64,000 bases of DNA from Chthonomonadaceae bacterium. Lineage in GTDB: Bacteria > Armatimonadota > Chthonomonadetes > Chthonomonadales > Chthonomonadaceae. Below, one piece after another: positions 34,100 to 45,092 of the stretch. The DNA lies in the NCBI GenBank assembly GCA_035650735.1, contig DASRGZ010000224.1, positions 1 to 64,000 on the forward strand, given 5' to 3'. Below the pieces are notes generated by a model. That model was not told where the DNA came from and did not search any database. It saw only the letters and a program-made list of their open reading frames with translations. Within the stretch, counting starts at the first letter, position 1. Each line of letters begins with the position of its first letter. A program made the translations under genes and the position numbers.

Positions 34100-34102
34100 C
34101 GC

Positions 34103-34296
34103 GGCAGGCTAAACCCTGCCGCTGTGGGGCCTACGGCCTGCTGCCTGCCTGCGCAGGCAGAGGATTCGGTAAGATGCTAGGATCGCCGCCCTCCCTCTCT
34201 GTGGACGACCTTGCTGCCTACGCAGGCAGAGAGTCTCGCCCACGCAGGTGGGCGACGGGCGCTTTGCGCCCCACAGCGGCAGGGTTTAGCCTGCCG
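34103..34296. repeat. REP-like family B inverted pair (REPIN-like)
   Basis: GGCAGGCTAAACCCTGCCGCTGTGGGGC and its reverse complement enclose CTGCCT-N4-AGGCAG hairpins. Confidence 0.8.
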
Positions 34297-41984: not shown

Positions 41985-42206
41985 CAGAACAAAATTCTCT
42001 CTGGCCGTTCAGAAATAGCTTTGAAAAAGACCAACGTATTGTACCACGAATGCCCCGCGCGACGGCGTGGGAAATCACTTCCCAGAGGATTACTGCACCC
42101 GCCCGGCAGCACAATCGCCGGAACCTGCAGCCTCCGTGCCGTTCCAGCAGGAAAGTCTGTCCCATCGTGCGAAGAAGGAGGTATTCCCCGCACGTGGAGG
42201 CATCTC

Positions 42207-43547
42207 ATGAAAACAGAAACCCTGTTTCTCAGCGCCCTGCTAACCGGCGCGGTCCTCGCCGGGCCGTGCGCAAACGCGGCGCAGAGCGAAACGCCGGAAG
42301 CGCTGAAGCAGAAGATCGAGGCTATGCGCCCCGCCCGGCACGTCTGGCGCGAAATTCAGTGGAAGACCTGCCTGCTGGAAGGGCTGCAAGAGGCGCGCGC
42401 ACGGAATAAGCCCGTGCTGCTGTGGGTCTTCATCCATCACCCGAACGACGAGCGGTGCTGAGTGTTCGCCGGGGCCGTCCGTGAGACGGTCTTTGCGAAC
42501 CCGGAGGTCATCCGTCGGGTCAGGGCCGCTTTCGTGCCTGTCGCCGTGCGGGCGGCAGATATGGAGCAGCCGCGCAGCGATGCAGAAGGGCGGCTCTTTC
42601 AATCCATCCGGCGTTCCCGGCTCGTCCCGCAGGGCCTCGCGATACTGAACAAGGATGGCCAAGTCTTGCAGTGGACCTTGATGTACGACGATAACAAGGC
42701 CGTCCTTGATGCGCTCGACCATGCTTTACAGCGCTTCCGACAGTTCCCGGATGCGAAACAGCCTGTCGTGACAGAACGGTACATGCGCTACCCGTCCCAG
42801 CGCGCGCCCGATTTCAACGAGGAAGCCCGGCCCTCTCCCCAATTGGCCCTCCACACGCCGGATAGTCCCTGCATCAGCAGCCCTCGCCTCCCGGAAGGAA
42901 TACTTGCGGCGCAGGTCATTGGCCGCGCGCTCGACAAGAACGGCCAGTACTCTCCCGATACACGGGCACAGGAACACTACATCGAGGACCAGTTCTCTCT
43001 TCCCCCGGATTTACAGGCGGAGTTGCTGCGCAGATGCGCGCAGGCGGGAACTGAGCGTGTCGAGTTGCCCGAAGGGTTCGCCTGGTTGGTGGCGACTCAC
43101 GCCTACCTAGGGCATCTTGACGTGCAGCCGCTGGATAATCCTCTCGGCGGGCACGAAACCAGGCCGGCGCAGATCAAGTTCTGGGCGCAGCCGATACGTG
43201 CCGACGGCCAACGCAAGACGCTGCGCGTGGAGGGAACTTCGGAGGTCGAAAGCCAGCTAGACCGCCCGGACAGCGGCTTCCTCTACAGCCACAACGTGCG
43301 CCTCGCCTGGGAGGGGTTCATCGAGTTGGACGGCCCCCGAATCCGACGCCTTCTGCTCTCCGCTGAGGGGACGGAAAGGCTCCGGTGGGGTTCTGAGCCG
43401 TTCTTGATGATGGCCCGCACCCAGAGTCCGACAGCCTACCTGCCCGCCGGGCATCCGATCTCTCTGGAGACTGCGGTTCGGTACGGCATCCTCATGGAGC
43501 CGGTCGCCTCAAGCAAGACGCCGCGCGGCCTACCCATTAAGCAGTAA
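42207..43547 (+). CDS. Probable exported selenoprotein with SelN-like Cys-Sec motif (UGA 42459-42461 = Sec85; 446 aa)
   Basis: RBS GGAGG and signal peptide. Both ORFs are in one frame, separated only by TGA. Context NKPVLLW..DERC*VFAGAVRETV, with a SECIS-like hairpin directly downstream. Confidence 0.75.
42464..42500 (+). promoter_or_regulatory. Bacterial SECIS-like stem-loop
   Basis: 16-position stem with one C:U mismatch and three G-U pairs; apical loop CGUGA lies 18 nt after the UGA. Confidence 0.7.
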
Positions 43548-43762
43548 ACGACAGGAAACGGGGTCGGAAATATACGCTTGTCCAGACTCGTCTATCAATA
43601 CTGCGTCCATTGCCAACGACAGGAAACGGGGTCGGAAATATACTTGCCGCAATAGTCGATCCCGGCGCAGGCCCGGACGCAACGACAGGAAACGGGGTCG
43701 GAAATATACCCCTACAAGCACGCCTGCTTGATAGCGTCCCCAATACACGATAGGCAACAGGG
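43547..43762. CRISPR. Orphan CRISPR-like mini-array
   Basis: AACGACAGGAAACGGGGTCGGAAATATAC identical at 43547, 43615 and 43681; degenerate copy at 43746; unique spacers of 39, 37 and 36 nt; no cas genes in the window. Confidence 0.65.
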
Positions 43763-43787
43763 CGCCTACGGTGTATAATATTTGGCT

Positions 43788-44894
43788 ATGCTCAGCGCCC
43801 GACTACGCAAAAATCTGGACGTGCCGCTGCTGGCCCTGACCTACCTGATCGCCGCGCTAGGGGTTATCGTCATCTTTAGCGCCACGCGCGGTGATCCCAC
43901 CCCGTTTTATAAAAAGCAGATCCTCTGGATGGCTGTCGGGACGGTGGGGTTGGCGGCGGCAGCCTTCATAGACTATCACCACTATGCCCGCTTCTCCCGG
44001 CATCTCTACGCGCTGAACCTGCTGCTGCTGGCGCTGGTGAGCAGCGGCAAGTTGAGCCACGCGGCCAAGGGCGCGGCGCGCTGGATCAACATCGGCGGAT
44101 TCCAGCTACAGCCCTCGGAGTTCGCCAAGCTCTTCCTGATTATCACGCTGGCGGTCTTCCTGGCGAAGCGGCACGAGAGCATCAAGCAGGGTAAAACGCT
44201 GCTGCTCTCCTTCCTCTACATTGCCGTTCCCGTCGCCCTCATCTTCAAGCAGCCGGACCTGGGCACGGCGCTGGTCATCCTTGCCATCTGGTTCGGCATG
44301 ATCTATATGGCCGGCGCACGCATCCTCCACCTCATCGCCATTCTGCTGGCCGGTGTACTGCTCTTTACGGGCCTGTGGTATTCGGGCAAGCTGAAGGACT
44401 ACCAGAAAAACCGGCTGATCTCGTTTGTCAACCCGGAGGCCGACCCGAAAGAGACCGGCTATCACGTTCTTCAGGCGCGGATCGCCATCGGCTCCGGCGG
44501 AATGTGGGGCAAAGGGCTGGGCCACAGCACGCAGGTGCGCGGCGGCTACGTCCCCGAAAAGCAGACCGACTTTATCTTTACCGACGTCGGCGAGGAGCTG
44601 GGGTTTGTTGGCTCGGTAACGGTAACGCTGCTCTATGCGGCTCTGCTCCTGCGGGGCGTGTTCATCATCGCCGCCGCCGACGAGGATATCCTGGGCAAGC
44701 TCATGGCGACGGGCGTCGTCACGATGTTTGCCTTTCACGTGATCGTCAATATCGGCATGAATATCGGCATCATGCCGGTCGCCGGCGTGCCGCTGCTGTT
44801 TTTCTCCTATGGCGGCAGTAACATGATCGTGGCCCTGGCCTCTATCGGCCTCCTGCAAAGCATCGCCATGCACCGGCACCAGTTGCTATTTTAA
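43788..44894 (+). CDS. rodA: Rod shape-determining protein RodA (SEDS)
   Basis: GAARWI, QPSEFAK, QPDLGT, IAIGSGG, PEKQTDFIF and SYGGS motifs. Confidence 0.93.
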   Translation: MLSARLRKNLDVPLLALTYLIAALGVIVIFSATRGDPTPFYKKQILWMAVGTVGLAAAAFIDYHHYARFSRHLYALNLLLLALVSSGKLSHAAKGAARWINIGGFQLQPSEFAKLFLIITLAVFLAKRHESIKQGKTLLLSFLYIAVPVALIFKQPDLGTALVILAIWFGMIYMAGARILHLIAILLAGVLLFTGLWYSGKLKDYQKNRLISFVNPEADPKETGYHVLQARIAIGSGGMWGKGLGHSTQVRGGYVPEKQTDFIFTDVGEELGFVGSVTVTLLYAALLLRGVFIIAAADEDILGKLMATGVVTMFAFHVIVNIGMNIGIMPVAGVPLLFFSYGGSNMIVALASIGLLQSIAMHRHQLLF

Positions 44895-44950
44895 TTGCCC
44901 GTCCCTATCCTTACTTCCACTCCAGGTCTAGGGGCGGACAAATCGGTTTT

Positions 44951-45092
44951 AGCGACGGAATAGAATTCCTTCGCTGTAGGGCGCTACGCGCCGCGTGTCC
45001 CTGCGGGACACGTGCCGGCTGCCGATAGGAAGGGTGTCCCGGAGGGACACACAGCCATCGGCTCTATAGCGAAGGGTTTCTAACCCGTCGCT
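44951..45092. repeat. REPIN-like nested palindrome
   Basis: 29-bp imperfect IR (44951 / 45064) enclosing two GTGTCCC-N3-GGGACAC hairpins. Confidence 0.75.

Follow-up and report, generated by a model that had tools for sequence, protein, structure and literature searches.

A leaderless repeat array between a selenoprotein gene and rodA of a Chthonomonadaceae bacterium, a probable product of off-target spacer integration

We analyzed a 64,000-nt stretch of DNA (the window) from the genome of a Chthonomonadaceae bacterium, in which a small array of spaced direct repeats, similar in layout to CRISPR (short palindromic repeats that are clustered and regularly interspaced), lies between a gene for a secreted thioredoxin-like selenoprotein and rodA. 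The window is part of contig C224 of the source assembly, which was 6.52 Mb in length, consisted of 224 contigs and had a completeness of 97.6%; other contigs of this genome are named in the same way. The mini-array was contained in the 240-nt intergenic gap between the plus-strand selenoprotein gene and the ATG start codon of rodA (Table 1).

A repeat search of the window recovered a 30-nt unit, CAACGACAGGAAACGGGGTCGGAAATATAC, in three copies with spacings of 68 and 66 nt. The second and third copies were 100% identical to the unit and the first was 97% identical: its base 43546 is A instead of C because positions 43545–43547 are the TAA stop codon of the upstream gene. The remaining 29 bases, starting at 43547, 43615 and 43681, were identical among the copies, which confirms the repeats and spacings reported in a first-pass annotation of the same DNA. 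Its observation that the first repeat overlaps the stop codon also held, base 43547 being the final A of the TAA that closes the open reading frame (ORF) 42462–43547. The 28-nt core of the repeat had exactly three exact matches in the window, all on the plus strand, and none in 100 shuffles. Tandem Repeats Finder returned 0 rows because the units do not stand head-to-tail. The inserts between the copies were unrelated to one another, as had been annotated, and to the rest of the genome (best other match, 16 nt). A minus-strand protein repeat (ORFs 43530–43757 and 43537–43743) was considered and rejected, since periods of 68 and 66 shift the copies between frames.

Beyond the third copy, a decayed fourth repeat with a period of 65 had been proposed. 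The sequence ACGATAGGCAACAGGG at 43747–43762 agreed with repeat positions 3–18 at 13 of 16 bases, and the corresponding start at 43745 was in register, giving that period; the distal half was unrelated to the repeat. When the 81-nt flank was shuffled 3000 times, 1.5% of the shuffles reached the local-alignment score of 17; combined with the in-register position, this gave a hand estimate of about 0.2% for a chance coincidence. No comparable decayed copy was found on the left flank of the array, where 81% of shuffles scored as well. The fourth copy is plausible and modestly supported.

The repeat folded only into a 4-bp CGAC/GUCG stem, as described before (−3.5 kcal/mol on the plus strand and −2.3 kcal/mol on the minus strand); compared with shuffles, z was −2.5 for the repeat and −0.8 and −1.1 for the whole array. 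With E values allowed up to 10, an Rfam search of positions 42000–45000 returned nothing but noise, in the form of three matches well under the gathering scores. Each repeat contained a weak promoter-like pattern, ACGACA-17-TATAC(N), by match to the consensus, and a better one, TAGGCA-17-TATAAT, coincided with the distal half of the decayed copy just before rodA. Such patterns could belong to tandem protein-binding sites or promoter modules before rodA, or to some other local repeat unrelated to CRISPR; confidence in a CRISPR call is commonly taken to be low when the array has no more than three spacers. We consider an origin of this kind very improbable. No other copy or near-copy that would mark a regulon was present in the genome, the rodA upstream regions of eight relatives were not similar (0/8), and Rfam gave no match above noise. 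Binding sites would also leave unexplained the unique inserts of resident-spacer length and the 52 like units, with inserts copied from other loci, that are described below.

Beyond its three copies, the repeat had no other copy at up to 9 mismatches on either strand of the 6.52-Mb genome, and at up to 3 mismatches it was found in 0/41 genomes of the family and 0/400 genomes of the phylum. An exact 22-mer of the repeat had 0 matches in GTDB species genomes, where its twice-repeated 12-mer core occurred at 26 loci, none of them homologous (the best agreed at 21/30 positions, 12 of them forced). In JGI metagenomes, the twice-repeated 14-mer core was found at four loci; three were unrelated, and the fourth was the same locus on a contig that is not independent because it is 100% identical to the window over 20,082 nt. 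A 20-mer of the repeat had 0 matches in IMG/VR. The collection scans require exact words of 12–22 nt, which diverged relatives of the repeat could escape; within this scope, the unfamiliarity of the repeat was upheld in the genome, its relatives, GTDB, JGI and IMG/VR.

The locus itself was not conserved. We found no array in the rodA upstream regions of the eight relatives, which differed, only rodA being conserved; in an 11-kb contig from the same genus, rodA was the sole shared gene. The selenoprotein gene was missing from 41/41 family genomes and present in 3/24 genomes of a sister family. The thought that homologues of this gene might carry arrays gained no support: no direct repeats lay beside them at the three sister-family loci examined (0/3). 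Six DNA sequencing runs from three studies contained all sampled words of the locus, no RNA run being listed among those that hold it, and contigs of four runs from three studies spanned the array with zero differences. The source sample may be among these runs, and rare variants do not show in contigs; on that scale, the agreement of the contigs indicates that the array is real and static. Invariant spacers together with a lack of processed RNA had been named beforehand as evidence against a guide array, and the invariance was indeed found.

The array had no recognizable leader: the first copy begins within a stop codon, and G+C content was 0.58–0.63 on both sides. We detected no cas domain in the 22 neighbouring proteins (31.7–55.2 kb), which agrees with the earlier statement that cas genes are absent nearby, and no mobile-element genes flanked the array among the same proteins.

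Matches to Cas1, Cas2, Cas6, RAMP, Cas3-HD and Cas10 were all located on contig C93, which contains the single cas locus of the genome (C93:2501–27700), a hybrid of type I-B and type III. According to Pfam, it encoded the type I-B proteins Cas6, Cas7 (DevR), Cas5, Cas3 and Cas4, followed by a type III set (Cas10-like, Csm2, RAMP and Csx1-like) and Cas1; Cas2 was present as well. Cas1, Cas2 and Cas4 form its adaptation module, the sole one in the genome. The C93 array consisted of 80 perfect 29-nt repeats, the terminal one also undecayed, and spacers of 36–38 nt; periods of 65 (34 intervals), 66 (24) and 67 (14) made up 72 of the 79 intervals. Read from the cas2 side towards the array, the repeat is CTTTAATCGAACCAGCGTGGAATTGAAAC; in repeats of this kind, the end that forms the tag is usually the one seen here as ATTGAAAC. 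The mini-array had no spacer in common, whole or overlapping, with the 79 spacers of C93 (best match, 9 nt). The locus also contained a WYL-domain protein and an integrase fragment. No match to Cas9 or Cas12a was found in the genome, the Cas12a blank being weak because the Cas12a control matched nowhere; two TnpB-like matches lay on contigs other than C93. One control locus, L023:14460–15000 (OZ241847.1, a metagenome genome of Gammaproteobacteria), held a regular array of 36-nt repeats ending in AATTTCTACTCTTGTAGAT, with inserts of 26–28 nt; this repeat end is presumably typical of Cas12a arrays.

Two further arrays in the genome, C126:9840–10050 and C109:6231–6470, were cas-less, with palindromic repeats of one family and a period of 61. 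The former had four copies of a recognizable palindromic repeat, mutated from copy to copy. At C109:6200–6480, a three-copy palindromic mini-array (period 61) was framed by the two arms of a ~24-nt inverted repeat (GGTTTCTTTAGGGTTCTAAGGGTG and its complement). After it came a fourth repeat, different in sequence, that resembled the C126 repeats; this region might be a small mobile cassette. The repeat of the selenoprotein–rodA mini-array was not significantly similar to either of the genome's two other repeat types (p 0.055–0.33).

The mini-array shared its unit sizes with the C93 array and had a unique repeat, and the resident integrase was therefore considered as its maker. The entire genome was searched for identical direct repeats with a short stretch of unique DNA between them. 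Outside C93, repeats of 29–32 nt piled up at inserts of 33–41 nt. Units with an exact duplicate of 28–33 nt, an insert of 33–42 nt and a period of 64–70 (class A) occupied 54 rows: 52 other sites on 45 other contigs and the two units of the mini-array. A typical unit consisted of two identical stretches of about 30 nt on either side of a unique insert, which measured about 37 nt. Duplicates measured 29 (9 rows), 30 (25), 31 (12) or 32 nt (6), and periods of 65 (5), 66 (9), 67 (14), 68 (16) and 69 (7) prevailed; at every other spacing, to a limit of 216 nt, duplicates of these lengths numbered 0–1 per 3-nt bin. A mismatch-tolerant scan with a 29-nt window found, at periods 64–70, 56 perfect units, 25 with 1–2 mismatches and 22 with 3–4, so that about 47 additional worn units appeared on allowing mismatches; periods 40–60 and 79–110 combined gave three perfect units. 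In 1.08 Mb of control DNA (199 kb from a genome of the same genus, 400 kb from one of the same family and 481 kb from unrelated loci chosen for other reasons), there were 0 class-A units, compared with about 8.6 expected at this genome's density of 8 per Mb.

The mini-array was the sole class-A site hit more than once; the other three-copy sites outside C93 were the cas-less arrays of C109 and C126. The duplicated sequence had no further genomic copy in 43 of the 54 rows and belonged to dispersed REP-like families in 11. For one of the latter, the unit at C59:66548, a paralogous element on C111 lacked the insert and one copy, although this element contains internal repeats and did not align cleanly. 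One dispersed REP-like family, marked by GGGTCGG(C/G)CCT(G/A)CAATGG, gave roughly 70–190 BLAST matches per member. At least two of the ectopic units occupied equivalent positions of different REP-like copies, and this family may be a preferred off-target.

Twelve of the 54 class-A inserts had another match in the genome at E values up to 0.01. Five were full-length exact copies (36–39 nt) of sequences on C35, C15 (three) and C109, and a sixth copied a locus on C93 at 35/36 positions; the others comprised two from a dispersed repeat and four short partial matches. The five exact self-derived inserts imply duplications of 29–31 bp. Their protospacers were flanked on the 5' side by CCG, (G)CC|G, GA(C), CCG and CCG, i.e., CCG in three of five, or four of five with a 1-nt slip; by hand estimate, with a CCG frequency of about 0.03, the chance of three in five is about 3e-4. 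None of the 79 C93 spacers matched its own genome (0/79), which fits self-targeting spacers being tolerated only where they are unused and lethal where they are used.

Likeness of the duplicated targets to the C93 repeat was measured as the best ungapped match on both strands with 7 offsets. Class-A targets averaged 12.0/29, compared with 10.76 for 5000 random genomic 30-mers (Mann–Whitney p 1.5e-8). Ends in AAC were found in 7/53 targets (2.1% expected, p 1e-4) and ends in AC in 15/53 (8.6% expected, p 3e-5). The 14 targets that could be oriented by an AC end had A11, C13, G17, T18, A28 and C29 in common with the C93 repeat. The mini-array repeat, on the plus strand, agreed with it at 13/29 positions, including all six of these consensus positions. 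In global alignment, its score in plus orientation was equalled by 1.2% of genomic 30-mers and 4.3% of shuffles, and that of the other strand by 20% and 14%, respectively. The plus-strand polarity read earlier from the decay on the right is mildly favoured by this comparison: the repeat is collinear with the resident repeat ending ATTGAAAC, and the AC end is common to both.

We consider it probable that the mini-array is a "neo-CRISPR", formed when adaptation enzymes of the genome's own CRISPR system integrated spacers off target. Support comes from the geometry, the exact local duplication, the like units throughout the genome, the inserts that were copied from the genome itself and have a flank in common, and the tendency of the targets to resemble the C93 repeat. 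We infer that the integrase was Cas1–Cas2, with Cas4, of C93, and that events took the following order. The 29–30-bp sequence directly 3' of the selenoprotein stop codon (X), which has the terminal AC and the central A.C...GT positions of the resident repeat, would have been treated as a repeat by C93 Cas1–Cas2/Cas4. The integrase would have attacked both borders of the target and joined in a fragment of about 37 bp, and gap repair would have duplicated the target, converting X to X-S-X; a second hit at the same place would then have produced X-S1-X-S2-X. One possibility for the decayed copy at 43745 is that an older first hit left it as a distal copy, since worn or in part deleted and perhaps altered at its overlap with the promoter-like site of rodA; the other is a chance resemblance. 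The perfect copies, the unique repeat, the lack of a leader and cas genes, the position at the stop codon and the resident-like sizes would all follow from such an off-target duplication of local sequence. The further suggestion of an undescribed system or a dedicated regulatory array was not borne out, the array appearing to be a one-off local duplication with 52 sites of like geometry elsewhere in the genome.

Several results weigh against an origin by off-target integration. The mini-array repeat's agreement of 13/29 or better with the C93 repeat was reached by 12% of random 30-mers (both strands, 7 offsets), and a local alignment of the two repeats was not significant. By hand means, the ectopic units had a period of about 67.3, compared with about 65.7 in the resident array, i.e., about 1.5 nt longer. 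The REP-like families that hold 11 of the 54 targets have a structure of their own that could mimic some units. Checks against independent read sets were confined to this locus, and the other units rest on a single metagenome-assembled genome. The array's own two or three inserts had no source in the genome, among phages and plasmids (BLAST, nothing better than E 0.8) or in IMG/VR (0 matches to exact 20–22-mers); about 10% of the spacers of any array have a known match, according to the available part of a review (PMC8616872). An empty site was not found at the locus, the relatives being too distant: RodA of the same genus was 79% identical, both flanks were non-syntenic, and the upstream gene was absent throughout the family (41/41). 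Finally, a decayed terminal copy in register is a classic mark of an ordinary older array, which simple duplication does not predict.

This last point is the best argument for an ordinary orphan relic, i.e., the tail of a foreign or lost CRISPR-Cas locus whose repeat family has not yet been sampled: the architecture is typical of CRISPR, and the half-decayed copy stands at the presumed trailer end. Such a relic could have come by horizontal transfer, perhaps with the patchy selenoprotein gene, or been left after loss of the cas genes, both cas loss and mobile-element transfer being routes to isolated arrays in the accessible portion of PMC13142298. The genome does retain cas-less relics of another system on C126 and C109, and the distribution of the upstream gene (0/41 family and 3/24 sister-family genomes) points to a neighbourhood with a history of transfer or loss. 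We nevertheless regard a relic as unlikely. Within the scope of the scans, none of the collections yielded a homologous repeat; the genome's real relic on C126 has mutated copies, unlike the three perfect ones here; and the array has no leader, abuts a stop codon and is not flanked by mobile-element genes. Moreover, its unit sizes match those of the resident system, and 52 other single-insert units have equal sizes.

A third possibility is an array that functions away from the cas genes: the I-B or type III effectors would use it in trans, in the manner of RliB of Listeria monocytogenes, or an undescribed effector would do so. Its transcription would start at the upstream gene or at promoter-like elements within the repeats, and the resident Cas6 or a housekeeping RNase would process the product. 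No terminator-like site was found between the upstream stop codon and the array, a single weak site being present at 43762–43774, and read-through transcription from the upstream gene is likely because nothing of this kind separates the two. The perfect copies beside a decayed one could reflect selection on those still needed, a GGAA..A.AC 3' region is common to the mini-array and the resident repeat, and the available text of PMC3886909 documents a cas-less array that depends on Cas proteins encoded in trans. Working guides nevertheless appear very unlikely. The genome yielded a single Cas6 gene, whose cognate repeat differs from that of the mini-array at 16 of 29 aligned positions; the array is unconserved in relatives, its inserts are invariant in the contigs of the four runs, and no target was found in the genome, phages, plasmids or IMG/VR. 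Folding did not convincingly exceed that of shuffles, and the neighbours are a periplasmic redox protein and RodA rather than nucleases. Given the divergent Cas6 cognate repeat, the absence of a target and the lack of conservation, we treat the array as most likely a passenger. There is a slim chance that the scattered X-S-X units, this array especially, are transcribed and partly processed by Cas6 or a housekeeping RNase and so make up a second, cas-distal memory bank, in which self-derived units, several of them from C15, could guide type III or I-B effectors to the effect of tuning genes of the host, not of killing it.

Two other classes of duplicated units were observed. The first had duplicates of 25–29 nt and a period of 61–62; three of its inserts were exact copies of C91:1275, C15:2024 and C175:34922, and one of the three protospacers was flanked by AAG. 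AAG is the flank of type I-E systems. This class has the geometry of the C109 and C126 cas-less arrays, and there is one Cas1 alone in the assembly, which suggests a second adaptation system, now lost. The second had exact duplicates of 35–40 nt, inserts of 33–40 nt and a period of 70–78 (16 perfect and about 50 imperfect units). Twelve of its 16 duplicated sequences were unique, there was no resident array of such geometry, and none of its inserts had a full-length source in the genome. Contig C15 (43.5 kb) was the source of 4/9 self-derived inserts (three of class A and one of the period-61 class) and may be a spacer-capture hot spot. Its identity as a plasmid or phage was rejected; it carried ordinary chromosomal genes, a BsoBI-type restriction-modification pair and an ISL3 transposase.

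Table 1. Positions of the features of the mini-array locus (window coordinates) and of example sites elsewhere in the genome (contig:position)
Feature	Position	Strand	Remarks
Secreted thioredoxin-like selenoprotein gene	42207..43547	+	In-frame TGA 42459–42461; TAA 43545–43547 overlaps repeat copy 1
Repeat copy 1 (X)	43546..43575	+	29 bases from 43547 identical to other copies; 43546 A, not C
Insert S1	43576..43613	+	38 nt with 30-nt X, 39 nt with 29-nt X
Repeat copy 2 (X)	43614..43643	+	Exact repeat match
Insert S2	43644..43679	+	36 nt with 30-nt X, 37 nt with 29-nt X
Repeat copy 3 (X)	43680..43709	+	Exact repeat match
Older third insert (S3) or native sequence 3' of the original target	43710..43744	+	
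Possible decayed fourth copy	43745..43774	+	13/16 match over 43747–43762; distal half unrelated to repeat
Sigma-70-like promoter match TAGGCA-17-TATAAT	43751..43779	+	Consensus match only; ends 9 nt before rodA ATG
rodA/ftsW (FTSW_RODA_SPOVE family)	43788..44894	+	E 1.2e-98
Class-A sites (examples)	C13:17206, C31:3766, C57:1424, C68:4604, C135:1594, C204:643/4511/39445/44370		
REP-like family (examples)	C28:62651, C59:66548, C38:32120, C120:27850, C224:65064		C224:65064 lies beyond the window
Period-61 class sites	C1:10060, C65:114, C65:6648, C67:9736, C135:1248, C174:14153		
Sites with 35–40-nt duplicates (among others)	C10:6485, C17:92631, C38:40468, C133:24591, C161:26022, C166:3393, C198:74393, C206:60055		

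The label of selenoprotein given earlier to the upstream gene product is sound. Its in-frame TGA follows the residues ..ERC; the RC-TGA-VFAGA junction, with a conserved signal peptide and domain upstream, was present in 3/3 sister-family homologues, a hairpin is located 3' of the TGA, and a tRNA-Sec gene was found on C198. The Thioredoxin_7 match of the protein was weak (E 6.8e-4, below cut-off). Truncation of this ORF by the array was considered and rejected: its C-terminus lies in a variable tail, where short-form homologues end. The protein is thioredoxin-like with a Cys-Sec pair and has 61 homologues (P0003–P0063); most of those in databases are called from a GTG or ATG just 3' of the TGA (~340–370 aa) and named hypothetical, and the family thus seems to be systematically mis-annotated as truncated. 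Long forms (~550 aa) have an additional C-terminal coiled region. The 22 neighbouring proteins were housekeeping ones, including a CCA-adding enzyme, metallo-beta-lactamase-fold proteins, RodA, DUF6785/6784, an MFS transporter, adenosine deaminase and an ABC transporter. As BLAST side-hits only, a 29–30-nt sequence was observed in the window at 2827–2856, 34102–34130 (minus strand) and 34268–34296; two of these copies form an inverted pair 137 nt apart, at ~34.1–34.3 kb.

One natural genome appears to carry about 50 perfect and about 47 worn footprints of misplaced spacer integration, in three size classes: about 30 nt plus about 37 nt, the ruler of the resident system; period 61, like the cas-less relics; and duplicates of 35–40 nt. 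If the units are real, they provide an in vivo map of the sequences that a type I-B-like integrase accepts as a repeat. They would also be a sample of captured DNA free of interference selection, with self-derived inserts and a flanking motif that are lacking in the real array, and the mini-array would be a concrete example of the start of a new array, with one site hit at least twice. They also carry a warning that "orphan array with unknown repeat" calls in metagenome genomes can be integration scars.

The mini-array is not a new RNA-guided system; neo-CRISPR arrays are already known, and the interest lies mainly in the genome-wide record. We found no published report of a natural genome with dozens of such units in a search that left most subscription literature outside, and priority is not claimed. 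Like the C126 and C109 arrays, the mini-array is small and cas-less; unlike them, it has perfect copies of a unique sequence, whereas their repeats are palindromic and form one family. Most isolated arrays reportedly have repeats identical or close to those of cas-adjacent arrays in the same or related genomes; the mini-array repeat, in contrast, matches the resident repeat at 13/29 positions only. In the accessible portion of PMC13142298, which cites Shmakov et al. 2020, the origins of cas-distal arrays are given as mobile-element transfer, cas operon loss and off-target spacer acquisition, and the mini-array resembles the isolated arrays considered there in lying far from the cas locus of the same genome. 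As with RliB-CRISPR of Listeria monocytogenes, in the available text of PMC3886909, it is small and cas-less and could act only through Cas proteins encoded elsewhere. RliB, however, keeps one genomic position across Listeria; it is expressed, PNPase processes it, and its spacers match phages (same text of PMC3886909). The mini-array repeat, in contrast, was found in 0/41 family genomes, and no array was present upstream of rodA in eight relatives.

The mechanism has closer parallels. Cas1–Cas2 of Pyrococcus furiosus, as described in PMC6698737, performs full-site integration 30 bp apart at non-CRISPR sites 43% identical to the repeat; positions at the borders and in the centre guide the enzyme, which needs no leader. 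The mini-array and its like units would share with these sites the paired attacks one repeat length apart, the low-identity targets that keep border and central positions and the leaderless setting. In the same source, the P. furiosus events come from an in vitro plasmid assay, with no fixed genomic products, and the preferences (border G/C, A-rich centre) apply to another repeat. In Escherichia coli, off-target integration spawned new arrays (Nivala et al. 2018, per the accessible part of 10.1101/148544), where the evidence for two other species and natural evidence in general are described as circumstantial. The resemblance to these neo-CRISPR arrays, as far as that text goes, is close: a non-CRISPR pseudo-repeat is duplicated around a spacer-sized fragment, without a leader and far from cas genes, and further hits at the repeat can grow the array. 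In E. coli, the same text indicates, the adaptation machinery is not naturally active, whereas the population that carries the present units in fixed form is a natural one, of soil or a mine. The presumed enzyme here is also a different one, a type I-B-like module with a 29–30-bp ruler, and, unlike in E. coli, the genome holds about 50 perfect and about 47 imperfect units, with two or three inserts at the mini-array.

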